Origin: an uncultured Acidimicrobiia bacterium | GTDB lineage: Bacteria > Actinomycetota > Acidimicrobiia > Spongiisociales > UBA4744 | Direction: 5' to 3' | Assembly (NCBI GenBank): GCA_964383535.1 | Contig: CAYLHS010000001.1 | Location: 20,026 to 84,025, forward strand | DNA length: 64,000 nucleotides | Shown: positions 2,842 to 44,466 of the stretch, piece by piece | How the letters are laid out: each line of letters begins with the position of its first letter | How positions within the stretch are numbered: the first letter of the stretch is position 1 | Made by a program: the position numbers and the translations under genes | Notes under the pieces: model-generated | The model's database searches: none | What the model saw: only the letters and a program-made list of their open reading frames with translations | Told to the model about the DNA's origin: nothing

Positions 2842-3101
2842 TCGCCCGCGGGACTACTCACGCGTGTCGGCTGGTCAGATCACCTGGGACGTTGTGCGTT
2901 GAGATGCTGCGGTTCAGGTGGGGGAGTAGTCAAGGGGACCTCTGGTGAATGGTCATCCATGATCCGTGAGTGGATGGAGTGTCTTCCGGCTGGAACTGCC
3001 TGCAACGCTCCAGCCAGGCGAGTCCTGCAGACGCAGGAGCGGCGGTCCACCTTCGATCCTCCGGACGAATCCCGGATCTGGAGGGCGGCTAGCCTCGCCG
3101 G

Positions 3102-3857
3102 ATGCGATTCCGTGAGATCGACCGACACCTTCGGGAGGGTCTGGCCAGGTACGGGCGCGTCGAGGCCACGCTCTTCGACAGTCCGGGTACGACGATCGCC
3201 CCGGTCGAAGACAGGGAGAGAACCAGCCGAGCGTCGGCCTACCTGGTCGGTGCTCACACCATCATCTACTGCGATTCCGCGGTCGCCGACACCGTCCGGT
3301 TGCTGGCGGATCCCGCCAGGTCGTTGCCACCGTCGGAGCTCAGAGGCTGGGCGACAGGGCACGGCTACGAATTCGAAGGCGGCGGCTGGATCCACCTTGT
3401 AGACGCGTCGATGATGAGGCCACCAGACCTTCCTGAGGGCACGACCCCGATTGTGCTCGACGCTGACGATCCCGACGACCGGGCGCTCATCGCCGACTTG
3501 GTGGATGCAGTCGGACCCGACGACGCGGACGAGGCGGATGTGAATCTCGACAACCTCGACCCGTTCATCCTGGCGCTCGTCGATCAACAGGGCAGGATCG
3601 GTGCCTACGCCAGCGAACGGCCCTTCGAGTACGGAGAGAGCTTCGCCGACATTGCCGTTCTCACCCGTCCGGAGATGCGCGCGCAAGGGTGGGGGAGCGC
3701 CGCCGTGTCGACACTGTGCGAACAGATCTTCGACCGAGGTCGGCTGCCGCTGTACCGCTGCAATTGGGAGAACTCGGGTTCACGCCGTCTCGCACTGTCG
3801 CTCGGATTCGTCGAAACGGTCACGCTCGCCGCAATGCACCTGCACGTTCGGCCCTGA
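3102..3857 (+). CDS. GNAT-family N-acetyltransferase (tentative)
   Basis: The C-terminal half has GNAT-like acetyl-CoA binding-region spacing (RAQGWGSAAVSTLCEQIFDRGRLPLYRCNWENSGSRRLALSLGF). Confidence 0.45.
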   Translation: MRFREIDRHLREGLARYGRVEATLFDSPGTTIAPVEDRERTSRASAYLVGAHTIIYCDSAVADTVRLLADPARSLPPSELRGWATGHGYEFEGGGWIHLVDASMMRPPDLPEGTTPIVLDADDPDDRALIADLVDAVGPDDADEADVNLDNLDPFILALVDQQGRIGAYASERPFEYGESFADIAVLTRPEMRAQGWGSAAVSTLCEQIFDRGRLPLYRCNWENSGSRRLALSLGFVETVTLAAMHLHVRP

Positions 3858-25364: not shown

Positions 25365-25422
25365 TGAACCCGGGGGAGAGGGCGAATTGAACCTGCTCTT
25401 TCCGGCACTACGCTTCCAGGTG

Positions 25423-27928: not shown

Positions 27929-29557
27929 TCAGGTTGGGAGCCTGGATTCAACCGTCGCGGTGATCTCGGCGGCCAGTGTGCGACACGTGTCGAGGGCAGC
28001 GGCGCGCCGCTGCTCCAAATCGTCGTGCCCTTCCAGAGACGACATGTTGATGCGTACGTTCAAAGAGGCCCCTTCGGCAGCTGCGAGAGCGCACAGACCG
28101 GCGACGCCGGCGTCCGTCACGGCGCTCTGGCTGCCACCGGAGGCCACACTCCGAGCGATGGTGAGAAGCTCTACGCAGGACTCGATCACCTCCAGCGGCA
28201 CGATCGTTGCACCGACCGTCGCGTCTGCGATGGCGGCGGGTCGATCCGGGTCGGCGCGGGAGATCCGGAACGCCGCCATCAGCGCGTTGAACGACTCGGT
28301 GTCCCGATCGACAGCCTGGAGAAGCCGATCCTTCAGCTCCTGGGCTTTGCACCCGGCGGCCTCCATCTCGGGAGTATGGCTCTTGCCGTAGGTGAGGGCT
28401 GCAACCATGGACGACAGCGACGCCGAAAGCGCTGCCACGAGCGCCGCGGTGCTTCCCCCGCCGGGAGTGGGGGTGCCCGCCGATAGGGAGTCGGCGAAGT
28501 CGAGGACCGGCATGGTGACGAGTCCCGACGGGGCCCCTCGGTACCGGTACTCGATGACCTTCTGGGCGGGGTCGAATGGGGCAACGTCGCTCAGGCCCAG
28601 GCTCATCGCGGCGATGTGCATGCGTTCCGGCTCGGGAACGCCGGTAGTCGCGCCACGGGCCCGGAGATAGTGATCCGCCGCTTCGAGCAGCGAGTCTCGT
28701 GGCACCAGCCCGACGATCTCGCTTCCAGTGACTCGTAGACCGAGACGCGCAGCCTCCTCGCAGGCCGCGTCGAACACGGCATGAAGCGGTGTCACGGACA
28801 GGTTGGTGAGGTTGAAGGAAACCTGGGCTCGGCCGTACTCCTCGATGTACCAGCCGACGCCGCGAAGCTCCGTGAATCTTCCCGGCACCCGAACGGCGGT
28901 GCCTGTCGCGTCCCGAACGGTCTTGCCGTGTTCGTCCTTCTTGACTCTGCCGCTCTCACGGAGTGCCGCGGCGATCTGGTTGGCGACCGAACGGTCCCGG
29001 GTATTCAGGTTCACGTTGTAGGCGATGAGGAAGTTGCGTGCGCCAACAGCCGTTGCACCCGACCGGGCATTGAACTCCCTGGGTCCGAAGTCCGGTGCAT
29101 CGTGCCGTTCGGGGAGGCCCTCATACTCACCTCGCCGCACATCCGCGAGAGAGCGCCGCTGGGGGATGGTTGCCGCCTCGCCGTAGAGGAACACGGGGAT
29201 GGCCAGTTCATCGCCGACCCTTGCTGCGACTCTTCGAGCCAGGTCGATGCAGTCCTGCATCGATGTCCCCTCGAGTGGTACGAACGGGCAGACGTCGGTC
29301 GCGCCCATTCGCGGATGTTCCCCGTGGTGAAAGCGCATGTCGATCAGGTCGGCAGCGTGTGCGATCGCCCGAAACGCCGCCTCTTCCACGGCAGGAATCT
29401 CACCGGCGAACGTCAGAACAGTGCGGTTCGTGTCGGATCCCGGATCGACGTCCAGCAACGCGACGCCGGCTACGTCGGAGATCGCGGCGGCGATCGCGTC
29501 GATCACGGCACGGTCACGGCCCTCACTGAAGTTGGGTACACACTCGACGAGCTTCAT
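27929..29557 (-). CDS. bifunctional glutamate formimidoyltransferase / formiminotetrahydrofolate cyclodeaminase
   Basis: Start reset to MKLVECVPNFSEGRD (classic formiminotransferase N-terminus), preceded by a GGAGGTG ribosome-binding site; the C-terminal ~200 aa are cyclodeaminase-like. Confidence 0.75.
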   Translation of the reverse strand: MKLVECVPNFSEGRDRAVIDAIAAAISDVAGVALLDVDPGSDTNRTVLTFAGEIPAVEEAAFRAIAHAADLIDMRFHHGEHPRMGATDVCPFVPLEGTSMQDCIDLARRVAARVGDELAIPVFLYGEAATIPQRRSLADVRRGEYEGLPERHDAPDFGPREFNARSGATAVGARNFLIAYNVNLNTRDRSVANQIAAALRESGRVKKDEHGKTVRDATGTAVRVPGRFTELRGVGWYIEEYGRAQVSFNLTNLSVTPLHAVFDAACEEAARLGLRVTGSEIVGLVPRDSLLEAADHYLRARGATTGVPEPERMHIAAMSLGLSDVAPFDPAQKVIEYRYRGAPSGLVTMPVLDFADSLSAGTPTPGGGSTAALVAALSASLSSMVAALTYGKSHTPEMEAAGCKAQELKDRLLQAVDRDTESFNALMAAFRISRADPDRPAAIADATVGATIVPLEVIESCVELLTIARSVASGGSQSAVTDAGVAGLCALAAAEGASLNVRINMSSLEGHDDLEQRRAAALDTCRTLAAEITATVESRLPT

Positions 29558-29778
29558 TGCACCTCCAATTCGAGGAGAGTCTCGAGCGGCTCGCGTCCCA
29601 GAGCGTGTGACACCATCGATTCCTCCCACTCCCTGAAGCGTTCCTCGCAGACAGCCGAGCAAAACTCTGAACCTCGACGCCTCGGGCCACCGTCCCACAG
29701 ACATGTCTGATGGAGACCCCGCAGCCACGCGGGATCGTAGAGCGGATACCGGCCCAAGGGGTCGAACGCGGTCTGCAT
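29554..29778 (-). CDS. hypothetical small protein (74 aa) translationally coupled to the formimidoyltransferase gene
   Basis: ATG is preceded by a GAGGAGAAG ribosome-binding site; its stop overlaps the downstream ATG (ATGA). The longer ORF-track version (29554..29898) would collide with the divergent zinc-ribbon ORF. Confidence 0.35.
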   Translation of the reverse strand: MQTAFDPLGRYPLYDPAWLRGLHQTCLWDGGPRRRGSEFCSAVCEERFREWEESMVSHALGREPLETLLELEVQ

Positions 29779-29879
29779 CTTCTCCTCGCTGCTCGCCCCA
29801 AGGGTAGAAGGGTTGGTGAATGGTTGGAGAAGGCGAAAGACTTCAGAAGCGTGCAAAGGTGGCCGATGCCACTCACTGA

Positions 29880-30059
29880 ATGGAACGAGGGCTGACATTC
29901 AAGTGCACCCGCTGCCGTGCGGCCCCTGCGGTGGTGAAGAAGGGCCGCAAGACGTTTCTTTGTCCCCGCTGCGCGTCCGACCTCATGTGGCACGACATGG
30001 TCGACTCAGTCACAGAAGCGTTCGTCGAGGATGAGACACCAGAGGTCGGATCGGTATAG
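29880..30059 (+). CDS. zinc-ribbon small protein (59 aa), hypothetical
   Basis: MERGLTFKCTRCRAAPAVVKKGRKTFLCPRCASDLMWHDM...: CxxC-x15-CxxC with high GC3. Absent from the ORF track (under 60 aa); a 2-TM ORF follows 9 nt later. Confidence 0.35.
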   Translation: MERGLTFKCTRCRAAPAVVKKGRKTFLCPRCASDLMWHDMVDSVTEAFVEDETPEVGSV

Positions 30060-30068
30060 CCTCTGGGC

Positions 30069-30389
30069 GTGTACCGACGAACCGGCATCGTGCTCCTACT
30101 TCTCGGGGTCGCCTTTTCCGTGTTGCTGCTTTGGCTGCCTGTCCGCTACTTCACCGGGTACCAGGTCGGAAAGGAGCAGGTCAGCAGAATCTATCTGCCG
30201 TGTGGCTCGGCGATCGGCATCGCTGCCGACCAATTCGATCCTGCGATAAGGACGCCTGGGGAAAGGATCGAGTGCATCAAACGGGCTCGGTCCCGCATCC
30301 TCTACGTCGTGTTCGTGGGGCCACTCCTGCTTCTCGGACTGTACGGGGTCTTTCGCGGGCCCTACCCACACCGCAAGCTCGGAGAGTAG
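30069..30389 (+). CDS. small membrane protein (2 predicted TM helices), hypothetical
   Basis: MYRRTGIVLLLLGVAFSVLLLWLP...YVVFVGPLLLLGLYGVF; positively charged N-terminus; starts directly after the zinc-ribbon ORF. Confidence 0.4.
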   Translation: MYRRTGIVLLLLGVAFSVLLLWLPVRYFTGYQVGKEQVSRIYLPCGSAIGIAADQFDPAIRTPGERIECIKRARSRILYVVFVGPLLLLGLYGVFRGPYPHRKLGE

Positions 30390-30673
30390 GCACGAGGGGG
30401 CCCTGGTATCCGAAGGAGGCCCCAGTACGCGTGCTGGGTCTGAGCAGCGGGCTCTGGGAAGAGCTGCGACTGCCTTCACGCTGGAGATAGCTCTCCCCAT
30501 CCTCGGGAGGCACCTGTACCGCAAGGGTCTCATCCGCACAGTCCGCTCCGATGGCCAACCGACAGCTCAGAGGCGAGGCCGGGGTGGCAGCTTCGAATTC
30601 ACGGCCGCAATGGAAGCGAACCTTGGGGACGAGTGACAGTATCCTCGCACCGCGTTCGAGGACAGGGCGCGTC

Positions 30674-31576
30674 CTAGTGCTCGGCCCTCGAAGCCAAGAA
30701 GGCTCCACACACCACCATGGCAGTGCCGACGATGGACAACCCCGCGACATGCTCGCCGTGGAGGAGGACGCCCAGGAGGATCGCCACGACCGGCAGGAAG
30801 TAGATGGCGATCGATGCCCTCGTGGCGCCCACCCGTCCCGCGAGTACGGACATCGCCAGTTGTGCGACACCTGTGCCGAATACGCCGAGCGCGGCAACCG
30901 CAGCGAACGGCCCCCATGCGAATGTCGCTCCGGAGAGCTGGGTGAGTCCGATCGGAACGACGATCACGATGGCGGCGAGCTGGGCCCGAAAGACGACCGG
31001 GAAGGCCCCGTACTGCTGCTGGAGTGGCACCGCCAGGTTGACGGCGAGTCCATAGGAGATCGTCGCAGCGAGAACCATGAGCGTGCCCCGCACGACCGAG
31101 GCACCGCCCCCGACGGTCGGGAGACTGACTGCCACGATGCCAGCGAGACCAAGCAGCAACCCAACCATCTGAGGCCGGCCCGGACTGCGTCGAAGGAGGA
31201 AGGCGGCGACCAGCGCCGAGAAGATCGGCATCGAACCGTTCAGCATCCCGGCCAGCGAAGAGGAGATCCACTGCTCTGCGATCGGGAACATCAACATGGG
31301 AAACGCCATCCACACCACACCGAGGAGCGCAATTCGCGGCAGGTCGGCGCGATTCACGCGGTGCCGTGACGCGGGAACCATCGCAAGGGTGGCTGCGCCG
31401 ATCAGGAGGCGCAACGAGGTGACGACGGGGGGTGGAAACGCCTCGAGACCGAGGGCGATCAGCAGAAACGACGATCCCCAAATGAGGGAGATGCCGCCGA
31501 GGAGACCCCAGTCTGCGACCGAATAGGCAGCGCGTGTAGTGCCGGGGGCGGTGGACAAGAGATTCGGACGCCGCAT
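30674..31576 (-). CDS. EamA/DMT-family transporter
   Basis: Start reset to MRRPNLL...; ten TM helices with the duplicated EamA domain pattern. Confidence 0.7.
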   Translation of the reverse strand: MRRPNLLSTAPGTTRAAYSVADWGLLGGISLIWGSSFLLIALGLEAFPPPVVTSLRLLIGAATLAMVPASRHRVNRADLPRIALLGVVWMAFPMLMFPIAEQWISSSLAGMLNGSMPIFSALVAAFLLRRSPGRPQMVGLLLGLAGIVAVSLPTVGGGASVVRGTLMVLAATISYGLAVNLAVPLQQQYGAFPVVFRAQLAAIVIVVPIGLTQLSGATFAWGPFAAVAALGVFGTGVAQLAMSVLAGRVGATRASIAIYFLPVVAILLGVLLHGEHVAGLSIVGTAMVVCGAFLASRAEH

Positions 31577-31705
31577 CGACGAGAGGCTAGCGGTCTGTCC
31601 ATCAACGTCTGGGGGCGGCCAGATGCCAGCGCGTGCAGCAGACTTGCCATCTGGGTTCTGCCGGTTGACCATCACCGATCTCGCGGGAACGGCACCGGAC
31701 CTGCG

Positions 31706-32935
31706 TCAGTATTCGGGGGTGTTCTGTGCCTTCCACACGACCGTGAATGCGAGGTAGATGGCGAACACGACGATCAGGATCGGTCCAATCCGGACGATCT
31801 TCAGCAGCCCGATCCGGTCGGCGAGCGCTGTTCCGAAGAGCGCTCCGAACGGGACGGTGCTCCAAGCCAGGCTCCTGCTCGCGGCGCTGACCCGGCCGAG
31901 AAGATGTGGGGGCGTGTAGAGCTGTCGCATGGTCAGCAGGCTCACGTTGGTCCACACCAGACCGGTGAACGCGACCGCCAGCACGCTGGTCACGATGAGG
32001 AGATTCCTCGACCATGTCAGACCGAAAATGCCGACGCCAAGGACGGCGAATCCGAGCACATAGCTGCGTCCGAGACCGACCCGATCTATGAGCTTCGACG
32101 CGCTGATGGCACCGATGATGCCTCCTGCACCCATCCCGACGAAGAAAATGCCGAGCTTGGCCGGGTCGTTGGTCCCCAGAATCTCCGCGCCGATGAGGAC
32201 GAGCGTGGCCTCGATGAACCCACCGGTGATGAAGTTGGCGAGTCCGCCCCCAAGTGTCGTGAGGCGAATTCGTGGCTCGTGCCAGAGGTGCTGCCACCCC
32301 TCCTTGAGTGTCTCGACGAAGTCGCCATTCCTCTCGAGGGTCCGCGGCGGAACACGGGCCAGGAGTGTGAACGAGGCTGCCGAAACGAGAAACGTCAGTC
32401 CGTTGAACGCGAATGCCGAGGGGAAGCCCGCCTCTTTGATGATGACCCCGCCGATCAGGGGGCCAATGAGGAACGCCGCCTGCTGCGACAGGGACAGTCG
32501 ACTGTTCGCTCGGGCCAGGGACGTGCCGGCAGCGAGGGAAGGGATGAACGCCTGAAGTGACGCGTTGAAGGAGGCCGCGAGACTCCCCGAGATGAAGGCG
32601 AGTGCAAACAGGCCAACGGTGGTGATTCCTGAGGTGCGAGAGACGATCGCCAGGACGATGAACGCCGCGGCCCTGAGCAGTTCGTTGAGGACGAGCAAAG
32701 GACGCAGCCGGTACCGGTCGAGCAGAGTGCCGCCGAGGAAACCGAAGATCAGCGTCGGGATGTTCTCTGCAGCCGAAAGGAGCCCGAAGTCGAACGCGCG
32801 CACCGTGAGCGATGTGAGGAAGTACGGAACGGTGAAGTAGGCGACGTAGTCGCCGAGCAGCGAGACCGATTGTCCCACCCATACGACGGAGAAGTTGCGG
32901 AGGGGGCGCGCGCGTCGGTGGGTGCCGTGGCTCAC
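31706..32935 (-). CDS. MFS transporter
   Basis: Twelve TM helices; NFSVVWVGQSVSLLGD N-terminus typical of MFS-family transporters. Confidence 0.75.
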   Translation of the reverse strand: MSHGTHRRARPLRNFSVVWVGQSVSLLGDYVAYFTVPYFLTSLTVRAFDFGLLSAAENIPTLIFGFLGGTLLDRYRLRPLLVLNELLRAAAFIVLAIVSRTSGITTVGLFALAFISGSLAASFNASLQAFIPSLAAGTSLARANSRLSLSQQAAFLIGPLIGGVIIKEAGFPSAFAFNGLTFLVSAASFTLLARVPPRTLERNGDFVETLKEGWQHLWHEPRIRLTTLGGGLANFITGGFIEATLVLIGAEILGTNDPAKLGIFFVGMGAGGIIGAISASKLIDRVGLGRSYVLGFAVLGVGIFGLTWSRNLLIVTSVLAVAFTGLVWTNVSLLTMRQLYTPPHLLGRVSAASRSLAWSTVPFGALFGTALADRIGLLKIVRIGPILIVVFAIYLAFTVVWKAQNTPEY

Positions 32936-33032
32936 GGCGGGTAGCCTAGCGGTGCACTGGCAGGGATTTCATAGTGACACGCCCGGACGAATTCGCTGAT
33001 GTGTCGTGCGCTCGGGTAGCCTCCATTGTGTC

Positions 33033-33517: not shown

Positions 33518-33849
33518 CCTTCGAATCCAATACGGATCGTTTCGCCGGGTTTCAAGCGACGCTGGTAGACGACGCGGGAAGGTCGGGGAGTGCGGAGGAA
33601 CCGGAACGCCAGTAGCGCCGCTCCCACCAGTACCAGCGTGGCGTCACCGGTTCGCAAGCCCCGAAACAGGCTCTTGACTGCGGATCCGCCGAGCTGCATG
33701 TGACCAGGCTAGCCGCGGGGAAGGAGCCAGAAAGCGCGTAAAGTACCTGCCATGCGGAACGAAACGATGAAGAAGGTCATTGTCTGGGTCATCGTCCTCG
33801 GAATGGTGCTCTCTCTCGCCCTGGGCGTCTTGGCCCTGGTGTTCTCGTC

Positions 33850-40853: not shown

Positions 40854-40871
40854 CCGGCGTACCCTGAGTCG

Positions 40872-42227
40872 ATGCAGCGCCGCATCTATGGACTCGAAAC
40901 CGAATACGGGGTCACGTGCACTCTCCGAGGGCAGCGGAGGCTGAGTCCCGATGAGGCCGCCCGCTACCTGTTCCGCAGAGTGGTGAGCTGGGGCAGATCC
41001 TCGAACGTGTTCCTCGAGAACGGCGCCCGGCTGTACCTCGATGTCGGAAGTCATCCCGAGTACGCGACACCGGAGTGCGACACCATCGGAGATCTCGTCG
41101 CAGCGGACAAGGCGGGTGAGCGGGTCCTGCACGAACTCGTCGGCGAAGCCCAGGCACGGCTTGGAGAAGAAGGAATCTCCGGAGAGATCTACCTGTTCAA
41201 GAACAACACCGACTCGGCAGGCAACTCGTACGGCTGTCATGAGAACTACCTCGTCAGAAGGGAAGCGAACTTCGCAGCGACCATCGACGCGCTTCTCCCG
41301 TTTCTGGTGACACGACAGATCTACACAGGTGCGGGGAAGCTGCTCCGGACCGCGCGGGGCGTTCGGTTCACGATCTCCCAGCGCGCCGAGCACGTCTGGG
41401 AGGGGGTGTCGTCCGCAACGACGCGCAGCCGCCCGATCGTCAACACGCGGGACGAACCCCACGCTGATGCCGCCATATTCCGACGACTGCACGTGATCGC
41501 AGGCGACTCGAACATGTCGGAACAGGTCACCTACACGAAAGTCGGTGTGGTGGGCGCGCTCCTCCAGATGCTCGAAGCCGGCAAGACGTTCAGAGCGCTG
41601 GATCTCGAGAATCCGATCAGGGCCATCAGAGAGATCAGCGCGGACCCGACATGCAGACGGCGTGTGCGCCTGGCAAACGGCCGTGAACTGTCTGCACTCG
41701 ACATCCAATGGGAGTACCTCGACGAGGTATCCCGATACGGCAGGCTCCATGGATTCCCCCCGTCGATCGAGGCCGCGGTCCGATACTGGGAACAGATGCT
41801 CGTCGGCATCGAAAAGGACCCGATGTCGCTCGCCGACCAACTCGACTGGGCGGCGAAGTGGAGCCTGATCGAGGCATACCGGAGCCGCCACGAGCTCTCG
41901 CTGTCGAATCCGAAGCTCGCAATGATGGATCTCGCCTACCACGACATCGATCCGGATCGTGGCCTCTATCACCTCTTGCTGCGCGCCGGGCGCATGCGTC
42001 GAGCAGTTGACGACGAGGCGATCCAACGCTTCACACTGGAACCTCCGACGACCACTCGAGCGAGACTGCGCGGGAGTTTCATCAAGGCAGCAAAGGCTGC
42101 CGGGCGTGACTTCACTGTGGACTGGGTCCATCTGAAGCTCAACGATCAAGCAAAACGCACGATCCTCTGCAAGGACCCGTTCGTACACACGGACAGGCGG
42201 GTGGAGAGACTGATCGAAGGCCTTTGA
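40872..42227 (+). CDS. pafA: Pup-protein ligase
   Basis: [17 protein letters not shown]...[32 protein letters not shown] is near-identical in pattern to mycobacterial PafA. Confidence 0.9.
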
Positions 42228-44096: not shown

Positions 44097-44172
44097 CCAT
44101 TTCGCATTAGTCACTACAGGGCGCAGCCGGCTGGACCGATACACGTGTCATGAACGGTGAGCGGAGCGCCGA

Positions 44173-44466
44173 ATGACCACTATCAAGACGACGTGCCAAC
44201 ACTGCGGTGACATCGAACTGCACCCCGACGATCTTGCACTCGAGCTGGACCCGACGGGTGACCAGGGGAGCTACCTCTTTGTGTGTCCCGAATGTGGAGA
44301 TTTGCAGCGACGCCCGGCAAACAACCGGGTCGTCAACGTCCTGCTCGCAACCGGCGTCAGCTACGACGTGATCGTGCCGGAGCCCGGACCAATCACCGAC
44401 GAGGAGATCTCCCGATTCGTCGACGCCCTCGACCGGGAAGAAGAGTTCTGGAGGATGCTCGCCTAG
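44173..44466 (+). CDS. zinc-ribbon protein (CxxC-x29-CxxC), hypothetical, between pafC and tatA
   Basis: MTTIKTTCQHCGDIELHPDD...FVCPECGDLQRRPANNRV...: 97 aa with an acidic C-terminus; a GAGCGGAG ribosome-binding site lies upstream. Confidence 0.5.
   Translation: MTTIKTTCQHCGDIELHPDDLALELDPTGDQGSYLFVCPECGDLQRRPANNRVVNVLLATGVSYDVIVPEPGPITDEEISRFVDALDREEEFWRMLA

Follow-up and report, generated by a model that had tools for sequence, protein, structure and literature searches.

The window (the whole 64,000-nucleotide stretch of DNA that was analysed) carries two small genes lying head to tail, ZR59 (forward strand, positions 29880..30059) and TM106 (forward strand, 30069..30389). The reading we favour, with slightly better than even confidence, is that they are genuine lineage-specific small-protein genes, tightly packed and with overlapping expression signals, that most likely have separate promoters, ZR59 being, at a guess, a small zinc-finger regulator or partner that goes with a divergent 74-aa ORF and the formimidoyltransferase (FTCD) operon, and TM106 an independent envelope protein. 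The pair is an ordinary lineage-specific one with a tidy overlap of signals; no known function, defence system, phage element or RNA family fits it, and its value lies chiefly in annotation and method, with no change to the understanding of any major process. It adds two small-protein families that are restricted to Acidimicrobiia: the ZR family (ZR59 and its homologues), which is inconsistently called, and the TM family (TM106 and its homologues), which has no Pfam or NCBIfam model.

ZR59 runs from an ATG at 29880 to a TAG at 30057-30059 and encodes a protein with its cysteines in the order C9-x2-C12-x15-C28-x2-C31; both the coordinates and the cysteine pattern are those of the original prediction, a 59-aa CxxC-x15-CxxC protein. 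Its GC contents at the first, second and third codon positions (0.60/0.49/0.73) are of the coding type and resemble those of the neighbouring real genes, the third position dominates the pairwise substitutions among homologues (352/314/811 at the three positions), synonymous codon changes are found at 15 of the 18 invariant amino-acid columns, and the median NG86 dN/dS is 0.20. Judged by these patterns of change, which show the reading frame to have been kept, ZR59 is a genuine protein-coding gene under purifying selection. Such a gene is easily missed: in three relatives' records (L008, L009/L010 and L014/L015) gene callers skipped the ZR ORF though it is present. An upstream ATG, within a CCGATG sequence, was rejected as a start for ZR, since just 5 of 11 lineages have it in frame and L008 lacks it.

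Residues 8-32 of ZR59 match the Pfam family zf-FPG_IleRS (PF06827) at 28.0 bits (E 1.9e-6), above the gathering cut-off of 21.3, and the likeness to this Fpg/IleRS-type C4 zinc ribbon lies in four cysteines, spaced CxxC-x15-CxxC, around a beta-hairpin. In the Fpg/Nei glycosylases and IleRS, however, a large enzyme carries the finger as its C-terminal domain, whereas ZR59 and every one of its homologues (52-68 aa; 59 in ZR59) are proteins in their own right, confined to Acidimicrobiia, with a conserved helix of their own (CASDLMWxDMV) and an acidic tail. The 14 sequences of the family share invariant F7, C9, C12, A17, G22, R23, F26, L27, C28, C31, A32, D34, M36, W37 and V41; the four cysteines among these, unchanged in 14 of 14, are the predicted zinc ligands. 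The protein is laid out as a CxxC knuckle, a basic beta-hairpin (VVKKGRK), a second CxxC that caps the conserved helix, and the tail, which is variable. An AlphaFold2 model (pLDDT 68 overall and 80-83 in the core) has strands at residues 19-21 and 25-27 and a helix at 29-46 with the second CxxC at its N-terminus, a treble-clef-like arrangement with no significant match among solved structures: a Foldseek search of the PDB with this model gave none at E<=0.001 (its top hits, ClpX, RING and B-box fingers, had E>=1.7), and a ZR-family profile found nothing below E 0.03 among PDB sequences. The best matches, to uS14 type Z, bL33 and the ClpX N-terminal zinc-binding domain, are similar to ZR59 in size and CxxC...CxxC layout, yet at E 0.06-1.7 they are not significant and give no evidence of homology; unlike these proteins, ZR59 has a genomic context unrelated to ribosomal or Clp genes. 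The family alignment, the Pfam match and the model together indicate that ZR59 is a soluble cytoplasmic C4 zinc-finger or zinc-ribbon protein with an acidic disordered tail, whose metal binding is predicted. The HxxxCxxC motif of zinc-binding anti-sigma (ZAS) factors is missing, and ZR59 was rejected as one of these.

TM106 begins at a GTG (30069) and its TAG stop ends at 30389, so that the 106-aa protein with two transmembrane segments (TMs) that had been proposed 9 nt after ZR59 is confirmed, with hydrophobic helices at about residues 7-25 and 78-95. The protein reads, in order, MYRRTG, TM1, a loop of ~52 aa that contains invariant C45 and C69 (in a CxKxARxR motif), TM2 and RGPxP; its termini are net positive and its loop net neutral, and it probably has an N-in/C-in topology with the loop extracytoplasmic and disulfide-bonded. 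Its codon-position GC contents (0.64/0.43/0.75) are again coding-type and like those of adjoining real genes, and with pairwise substitutions of 908/606/1485 by codon position, synonymous changes at 24 of 28 invariant amino-acid columns and a median NG86 dN/dS of 0.36, TM106, by the same kind of evidence as ZR59, is a genuine protein-coding gene under purifying selection. It has 10 close homologues, and a search of 1.84 billion proteins at E<=1e-3 gave a family of 27 representatives, all of them 98-145 aa long, matched over their full length and beginning at MYRRxG, in which C45 and C69 are the sole invariant columns. A look-up showed that the exact sequence of TM106 in the window is not on record, and Pfam and NCBIfam have no family for it or for 24 members of the wider TM family. 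An AlphaFold2 model made from 11 sequences (pLDDT 55.6) was too poor for a fold search.

The spacer between the two genes is 9 nt long (CCTCTGGGC), and the genes share a reading frame with only a stop codon and three codons between them, which the original prediction did not remark on. The predicted head-to-tail adjacency is kept in lineages whose TM proteins are just 31% identical. Within the junction the ZR59 stop and the following CCT form the hexamer TAGCCT (forward strand, 30057..30062), a putative TANNNT -10 box that occupies -12..-7 relative to the first base of the TM106 GTG. The CCT is invariant and the next 6 nt are variable, and in the nine distinct lineages with a 9-nt junction the ZR stop is always kept, as TAG or, in L001 and L020, as TAA, and is never a sense codon. 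At 13 of 14 TM-family loci a TANNNT stands at -12..-7 of the TM start (it is 3 nt further upstream in the exception, L022), and the chance of finding one at a single fixed position is ~0.006 at this base composition. The hexamer is kept even at the loci where it is not the ZR stop and the upstream context is otherwise unlike the window's, namely L023 (where TM follows a DUF1801 gene), L024, L037 (the contexts of these two resemble one another) and the tandem paralogue of L016.

A TANNNT that precedes the start codon by ~12 nt is a published hallmark of actinobacterial leaderless genes (PMC3160421, PMC6448022), a further criterion for which is that they start with ATG or GTG and lack a Shine-Dalgarno sequence between -6 and -17 (PMC6448022). 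TM106 is like these genes in its TAGCCT at -12..-7, kept across the family, in its GTG (the TM start is ATG at 3 of 14 loci) and in having no Shine-Dalgarno sequence: the 17 nt upstream of the GTG (the GGATCGGTATAGCCTCTGGGC region) contain no AGGA, GGAG or GAGG, and the nearest GAGG is 22 nt upstream. It differs from a typical leaderless gene in that its -10 box would be built from the stop codon of the gene before it. The same architecture, TA[GC]CCT or TANNNT followed by 5-7 nt and the start, is found elsewhere in the window at pafA, EamA, MFS, GNAT and POR-alpha starts; the well-supported starts among these are those of pafA (Pfam match from residue 4), the 300-aa form of EamA and the 409-aa MFS protein, the last two having lengths that agree with relatives' gene calls. 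Genome-wide, TANNNT-N6-RTG is at chance level (10 against 8.8 expected), and the argument consequently rests on position relative to conserved gene starts and not on enrichment. Since the hexamer holds its place at 13 of 14 loci, in unrelated contexts, without a Shine-Dalgarno sequence and with parallels in the window, we infer that TM106 has its own promoter, from which RNA polymerase would start at the G of the GTG, 6 nt downstream of TAGCCT, and make a leaderless mRNA.

Such a -10 box, including as it does the ZR59 stop, would freeze the intergenic distance at 9 nt and restrict the stop to TAG or TAA; the constant spacer (and with it the shared frame), the constant stop and the constant CCT would all follow from the TANNNT geometry. 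The locus is thereby a clean example of a stop codon that doubles as the putative -10 box of the next gene's leaderless promoter, and it offers a purely transcriptional cause for a rigid in-frame 9-nt spacer that might otherwise be taken as a sign of translational coupling, read-through or a split gene. Because the junction is intact in 9 of 11 distinct ZR lineages and read-through from the putative ZR promoter would be unimpeded there, a bicistronic mRNA with reinitiation across the 9 nt may coexist with the leaderless one.

The homologues of ZR59 and TM106 are 25-98% identical to them, all come from uncultured Acidimicrobiia and lie in one syntenic core region that adjoins the Pup-proteasome genes in every relative; as the ZR-bearing loci all belong to this one block, their constant positions are less than fully independent as evidence. 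In every case ZR points away from the 74-aa ORF and FTCD, and TM stays beside the EamA transporter gene. The two genes are 1.9 kb apart in L024 and are separated by 120 nt, out of frame, in L037, and the pair in 'bacterium BMS3Abin02' is split by an ABC-2 transporter operon, its genes on the opposite strand. TM occurs without ZR in L022 and L023 and has a tandem paralogue in L016; its family extends beyond that of ZR. Every ZR gene found has a TM gene no more than 2.2 kb away, and a functional link may therefore exist. One further candidate ZR locus from a metagenome scan, L038, proved to be a false positive (low-GC DNA with no ZR ORF).

On the other side of ZR59, and divergent from it, lies the 74-aa ORF (reverse strand, 29554..29778), which contains an H-x2-C ... 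FCSxxC motif and has GC1/2/3 values of 0.67/0.49/0.72. With homologues at every ZR-bearing locus (HMM E 1e-31 to 1e-47) and conservation of both its ATG at 29778 and the Shine-Dalgarno GAGGAG that precedes it, this ORF is real, as had been supposed. Its TGA and the start codon of FTCD share bases (ATGA at 29554-29557), which makes it the first gene of the FTCD operon. Pfam gave a sub-threshold match alone, to DUF2116 ('probable treble clef'), and a profile search of PDB sequences gave no matches. A conserved block in the intergenic alignment of 8 lineages contains AGGGTA or AGGCTA, and the reverse strand here carries TACCCT (29801..29806), a candidate -10 box for the 74-aa ORF and FTCD that fits the TANNNT consensus (PMC6448022) and would give a ~16-nt leader with a Shine-Dalgarno sequence. 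The gap between ZR59 and the 74-aa ORF is 101 bp, in agreement with the shared divergent promoter region of about 100 bp that had been envisaged; that both genes of the pair are driven from there is not upheld, given that TM106 has a putative -10 box of its own.

The 74-aa ORF is the conserved C-terminal part of a longer antisense ORF of 114 aa (29554..29898) that covers the first 19 nt of ZR59, and long antisense ORFs are common in high-GC DNA; if this or another overlapping ORF were the real gene, ZR59 would be spurious. We regard this as almost certainly wrong: only the last 74 aa, with the Shine-Dalgarno sequence and ATG 29778, are conserved, the upstream extension varies in both sequence and length, the other overlapping ORFs have non-coding GC patterns, and it is the ZR59 frame that has the low dN/dS and third-position-dominated change described above. 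With its start conserved at 29778, the 74-aa ORF does not overlap ZR59 at all. A very improbable alternative of another kind is that translation continues through the in-frame TAG, or that this stop is a recent acquisition, and that the true product is a ZR-linker-TM fusion, in which a cytoplasmic zinc finger forms the N-terminal part of a membrane protein. The shared frame with only a stop and three codons between the genes in every lineage with the 9-nt junction, the C that follows the stop (TAGC or TAAC) and the N-in topology of TM106, which would suit an N-terminal cytoplasmic domain, are all compatible with such a protein, but the stop has been retained in nine distinct lineages, changing between TAG and TAA and never to sense; the third position of CCT is invariant despite a GC3 of ~0.75, which argues for a nucleotide-level signal and not a proline codon; L037 and L024 keep both genes out of frame or far apart; and there is no fused homologue among the 27 TM-family representatives or the 14 ZR homologues.

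A more serious alternative, possible though in our view doubtful, is that ZR59 and TM106 are a true bicistronic operon whose products pair physically, with one transcript from the divergent promoter region, termination-reinitiation over the 9 nt, and the ZR59 acidic tail docked on the basic cytoplasmic ends of TM106 (MYRR... and RGPxPxRK) to make a membrane-tethered zinc-finger module, for example a sensor/regulator pair that works through the Cys-pair loop. The genes are on the same strand with a 9-nt gap, no terminator-like site was seen between or after them by an E. coli-type consensus scan, their adjacency holds down to 31% TM identity, ZR always has TM no more than 2.2 kb away, and their charge patterns are complementary. 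Against this, the invariant part of the junction (TA-CCT) is the putative -10 box and not a Shine-Dalgarno or coding signal, and it is still there at loci with ZR far off or missing; the opposite-strand genes of BMS3Abin02 make co-transcription impossible there; and the TM family is the wider of the two. The compact two-gene unit of the original prediction is accordingly supported in part: it stands as regards two real genes and a conserved 9-nt adjacency, and is not supported as a single functional unit driven from the shared divergent region, since the TANNNT would explain the spacing, TM can be uncoupled from ZR, and ZR keeps to the FTCD side and TM to the EamA side. We think it very unlikely that the two genes make up a small toxin-antitoxin, holin-like or defence module composed of a membrane-damaging small protein and a zinc-finger partner. 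Two small genes, one of them for a short two-TM protein, a weak match of TM106 to Phage_holin_2 (PF23778; E 0.034) and, in relatives, a gene of the Holin-X family (PF07332) at a distance of 3 kb might bring this to mind, but the Phage_holin_2 score of 14.8 bits is far under the cut-off of 32 and covers TM1 only, no holin was matched in PHROGs (and nothing else meaningful), and we rejected that assignment. The best PADLOC-DB match of the three small proteins was a non-significant E 0.0018 (15 bits) to the 358-aa candidate HEC-08, with none for TM106 or the 74-aa ORF; no relatives turned up when viral contigs were scanned with the ZR alignment; the locus is in a stable syntenic core chromosomal region by the Pup-proteasome genes and not in a variable island; and TM is found alone and as a tandem paralogue. 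On the favoured reading of separate promoters, our best guess is that ZR59 would be a nucleic-acid- or protein-binding zinc-finger regulator or partner tied to the divergent 74-aa ORF/FTCD operon, and TM106 an independently expressed envelope protein beside EamA/MFS exporter genes and a mere neighbour of ZR59.

Searches for other signals at the locus were negative: Rfam found no RNA family over 29400-30800 at E<=1, the region downstream of TM106 folds no better than its shuffles (z = -0.06), and a scan of 29500-30750 gave 0 sigma-70 sites and 0 terminators with E. coli-type consensus sequences that are ill-suited to a GC-rich actinobacterium. Upstream of ZR59, where there is no TANNNT at the corresponding position, lies a bipartite promoter-like motif, CTTCAG-N16-CCGAT (forward strand, 29841..29867, with GCCGAT at 29862-29867). 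As CTWCAG-N16-CCGAT it is exact in 10 of 11 distinct ZR lineages (its first half is CTCAAG in L008), and each ZR-bearing locus has one copy, always just upstream of ZR. The sigma-28 consensus elements are TCTAAAG and GCCGATAA (PMC12784957). When the sigma-28 (FliA/SigD/WhiG) promoter TCTAAAG-N14-GCCGATAA is compared with the ZR59 motif, the first 6 of 8 positions of the -10 element match GCCGAT(GC) and 4-5 of 7 positions of the -35 element match CT[TA]CAG; however, the TAAA core is unmatched, the trailing AA of the -10 element is absent and the spacer is 15 nt, not 14. We take the ZR59 motif to be sigma-28-like and non-housekeeping as a lead and not as a classification. From it ZR59 transcription would start 0-5 nt before the ATG, with a predicted start at ~29877, 3 nt before it; promoter activity here, like that proposed for TM106 with its leaderless translation, is deduced from matches to consensus sequences and from conservation.

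A more elaborate scheme can be drawn in which ZR59 belongs to an alternative-sigma (sigma-28/WhiG-like) small zinc-finger regulon and forms with TM106 a split membrane-anchored signalling device, where the Cys-pair loop would sense an envelope or redox cue and hold or release ZR59, which would in turn regulate the 74-aa ORF/FTCD one-carbon operon or the sigma factor itself; we think this a long shot. The window contains 2 copies of CTWCAG-N16-CCGAT where 0.12 are expected, and the other copy precedes a second small CxxC...CxxC ORF of 97 aa (44173..44466). The local match between the two proteins covers 13 residues only, too little to show them to be paralogues. The conserved sigma-28-like motif before these two small zinc-finger ORFs offers a starting point that can be tested for the study of alternative-sigma regulation in this uncultured class of actinobacteria.

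The two small genes lie on the forward strand of the window (63.6% G+C) at exactly the coordinates first proposed for them. ZR59 (29880..30059; ATG start, TAG stop), a 59-aa protein with a CxxC-x15-CxxC zinc-finger motif (MERGLTFKCTRCRAAPAVVKKGRKTFLCPRCASDLMWHDMVDSVTEAFVEDETPEVGSV), is followed after 9 nt (CCTCTGGGC) by TM106 (30069..30389; GTG start), a 106-aa protein with two hydrophobic helices, and the two share a reading frame, a point on which the original prediction did not remark. A divergent gap of 101 bp separates ZR59 from a 74-aa ORF on the reverse strand (29554..29778), whose stop overlaps by ATGA the start of the formimidoyltransferase-cyclodeaminase gene (FTCD; 27929..29557, reverse strand; 542 aa; Pfam FTCD_N, FTCD and FTCD_C, NCBIfam FtcD). 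Downstream, EamA transporter and MFS genes on the reverse strand converge on TM106; the TM106-EamA gap (30390..30673) is 284 bp long, ~11 to 345 bp in relatives, and holds neither a hairpin-plus-T-run that would resemble a terminator nor an Rfam match, while its predicted fold is no better than that of shuffled sequence. The genomic relatives are all MAGs named “uncultured Acidimicrobiia bacterium” or unclassified, plus “bacterium BMS3Abin02”, and the region is a syntenic core that runs from MFS, MarR and 2-oxoacid:ferredoxin oxidoreductase alpha and beta genes through FTCD(−), the 74-aa ORF(−), ZR(+), TM(+), EamA(−), MFS(−) and a Holin-X-family gene to a TtuA-like gene, TrmI, ferredoxin and the proteasome ATPase (ZR and TM denote the homologues of ZR59 and TM106). 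The pafA, pafC, tatA and tatC genes also lie within the window.

Both ORFs are real genes, as had been proposed. Their GC1/GC2/GC3 values (0.60/0.49/0.73 for ZR59 and 0.64/0.43/0.75 for TM106) follow the pattern of neighboring genuine genes such as FTCD (0.70/0.51/0.77), a pattern mostly missing from overlapping ORFs in other frames. ZR59 homologues are 42–84% identical and ten close TM106 homologues 54–98% identical, and when a TM106 profile was run against 1.84 billion representatives, 27 proteins matched at E ≤ 1e-3, most of them 98–145 aa long with few exceptions and aligned over their full length, at identities down to 25%. Among eight lineages, pairwise differences at the three codon positions number 352/314/811 for ZR59 and 908/606/1485 for TM106, and synonymous codon changes occur in 15 of 18 and 24 of 28 invariant amino-acid columns, respectively; median NG86 dN/dS over 11 lineages is 0.20 and 0.36. 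The longer antisense ORF (29554..29898; 114 aa), once named as a possible rival to ZR59, shows conservation confined to its final 74 aa, whose conserved ATG has GAGGAG ahead of it, and so does not compete with ZR59. The ZR family is under-annotated in public data: intact, conserved ZR ORFs were left uncalled by gene callers in loci L008, L009/L010 and L014/L015, which include two NCBI MAGs.

In all nine distinct lineages with an intact ZR-TM junction (9/9) it reads (G/C)TA/GCA - TAG or TAA - CCT - NNNNNN - GTG/ATG, in which T, A and CCT are invariant and the six bases ahead of the start codon vary freely. The resulting hexamer, TANNNT at −12..−7 from the first base of the TM start codon, is present at 13 of 14 TM loci, the exception being L022 (TACCGT, 3 nt further upstream), and in several the ZR stop codon plays no part in it: L023 (TAGCCT, downstream of a DUF1801 gene), L024/BMS3Abin02 and L037 (TACCGT), and the tandem second TM paralogue of L016 (TACACT), all at −12..−7. 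Leaderless genes of Actinobacteria are marked by a TANNNT whose first T lies ~12 nt ahead of the start codon (PMC3160421); SigA prefers TANNNT as its −10 element, and in mycobacteria about one quarter of transcripts are leaderless and ATG or GTG suffices for initiation (PMC6448022). The 17 nt before the TM106 GTG are free of Shine-Dalgarno tetramers. The ZR stop codon would then be part of a predicted TM106 −10 box, an overlap that would account for the fixed 9-nt spacer and in-frame relation (12 nt in all), the lack of TGA stops, and the invariant CCT, whose third position is constant despite a GC3 of ~0.75.

Six other genes in the window have TANNNT 5–7 nt ahead of their starts, mostly as TAGCCT or TACCCT: pafA (start 40872, forward; TACCCT-N6-ATG, 40860..40874), EamA (start 31576, reverse; TAGCCT-N7-ATG, 31576..31591), MFS (start 32935, reverse; 32935..32950), a GNAT gene (start 3102, forward; 3090..3104), POR-alpha (start 25420, forward; 25406..25422) and a 64-aa ORF (reverse; 33697..33711); the first five of these starts are well supported. 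This sequence pattern suggests that many transcripts of this genome are leaderless, and also that EamA starts at 31576, giving the 300 aa found in relatives, not at the longest-ORF start at 31675. A genome-wide count of the bare TANNNT-start pattern gave no enrichment, so the leaderless case is argued from position and comparison, not from statistical enrichment.

TANNNT is absent upstream of ZR59. There we find a bipartite motif, CT[TA]CAG-N16-CCGAT, that ends 15–18 nt ahead of the ZR start; of 11 distinct ZR lineages, 10 match the first half exactly (L008 has CTCAAG) and 8 have GCCGAT, and each matching locus has one exact copy, always just upstream of ZR. The ATG within CCGATG was considered as the ZR start and rejected, since no more than 5 of the 11 lineages have it in frame and L008 lacks it. 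Compared with the sigma-28 elements (−36)TCTAAAG(−30) and (−15)GCCGATAA(−8) (PMC12784957), the motif agrees at 6 of 8 positions of the −10 element and 4–5 of 7 of the −35 element, and its spacer exceeds theirs by 1 nt; such a reading would imply a start ~3 nt before the ZR59 ATG, and we treat the likeness as a lead, not a classification. The window holds two copies against 0.12 expected, a number reached in 0 of 100 shuffles. The second exact copy (44114–44140, forward) lies between pafC and tatA and is followed, 32 nt on, by a small CxxC...CxxC ORF (44173..44466, forward; 97 aa) with no demonstrable homology to ZR59, and small zinc-finger genes may share an alternative-sigma promoter.

We lean, by a little, toward reading the locus as two genes with separate and differently built promoters, compressed until the ZR stop codon sits inside the TM106 −10 box. 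The original prediction of a compact two-gene unit behind a divergent promoter region of about 100 bp is borne out in the adjacency, with TM at the ZR stop + 9 nt in most lineages, but the genes are separable. An HMM scan over all fetched loci found every ZR gene divergent from a 74-aa ORF homologue, and from FTCD wherever the contig was long enough; in L037, TM is 120 nt from ZR in another frame, and in BMS3Abin02 (L024–L026, 6192..8047) they are separated by an opposite-strand operon of two ABC-2-type transporter genes, the 3' end of its permease gene overlapping that of ZR by ~10 nt, so that at least there TM must have a promoter to itself. The expected conservation of the pair holds for most ZR lineages and fails in L022 and L023, where TM is present but ZR, the 74-aa ORF and FTCD are all missing (L022 still has the EamA-MFS-HolinX side). 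Across these loci, ZR thus keeps to the FTCD side, whereas TM keeps to the EamA side.

We give distinctly less credence to the possibility that ZR59 and TM106 share a bicistronic transcript and interact physically; the junction would allow transcription to run through and translation to reinitiate across the 9 nt, and in none of the loci did ZR lack a TM gene within 2.2 kb, which speaks against full independence. Stop-codon read-through to a fusion product, which the common frame would permit, is very improbable, and we give as little weight to spurious ORFs, which the coding evidence contradicts. Equally improbable is a toxin–antitoxin or holin module; PADLOC, PHROGs and a viral-contig scan with the ZR alignment gave no sign of a mobile element, phage or defence island. 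Each component of the locus is of a known kind: ZR59 is a free-standing zinc ribbon, TM106 a small two-TM protein, and the predicted TM106 promoter one of the leaderless type. The stop codon overlapping a predicted −10 box is a tidy detail.

The zinc-ribbon assignment of ZR59 stands: it scores 28.0 bits against the Pfam Fpg/IleRS zinc finger (gathering threshold 21.3), and the four Cys are invariant in 14 homologues, together with F7, A17, G22, R23, F26, L27, A32, D34, M36, W37 and V41, ahead of an acidic tail of variable length. A moderately confident AF2 model (core pLDDT 80–83) has a beta-hairpin (19–27), a helix (29–46) from the second CxxC and then a disordered tail, a predicted arrangement that is treble-clef-like; fold and PDB sequence searches gave no significant match. 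ZR59 is probably a soluble protein whose zinc finger is combined with a basic hairpin and an acidic tail; as a small regulator or partner tied to the 74-aa ORF/FTCD operon, it could plausibly bind nucleic acid or protein. The 74-aa ORF, homologues of which precede FTCD in every ZR-bearing locus, has a zinc-finger-like H-x2-C ... FCSxxC motif and a sub-threshold match to Pfam DUF2116 (“probable treble clef”), and no Pfam, NCBIfam or PDB relative.

TM106 belongs to no Pfam or NCBIfam family, and its AF2 model is not confident (pLDDT 55.6). The wider family has the layout MYRRxG, TM1, a loop of ~52 aa, TM2 and RGPxP, with only C45 and C69 invariant, the latter inside CxKxARxR. Since across the family the two ends carry a net positive charge and the loop is neutral overall, the positive-inside rule favors an N-in/C-in topology, which would put C45 and C69 on the outside, where they could form a loop disulfide; TM106 would then be an envelope protein with a disulfide-stabilized external loop. 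A second TM paralogue stands in tandem directly 3' of the first in L016 (6373..6666; MAG MFD02923.bin.2.53), and two JGI contigs of the same lineage (L031 and L032, 4562..4855) carry the same tandem paralogue.
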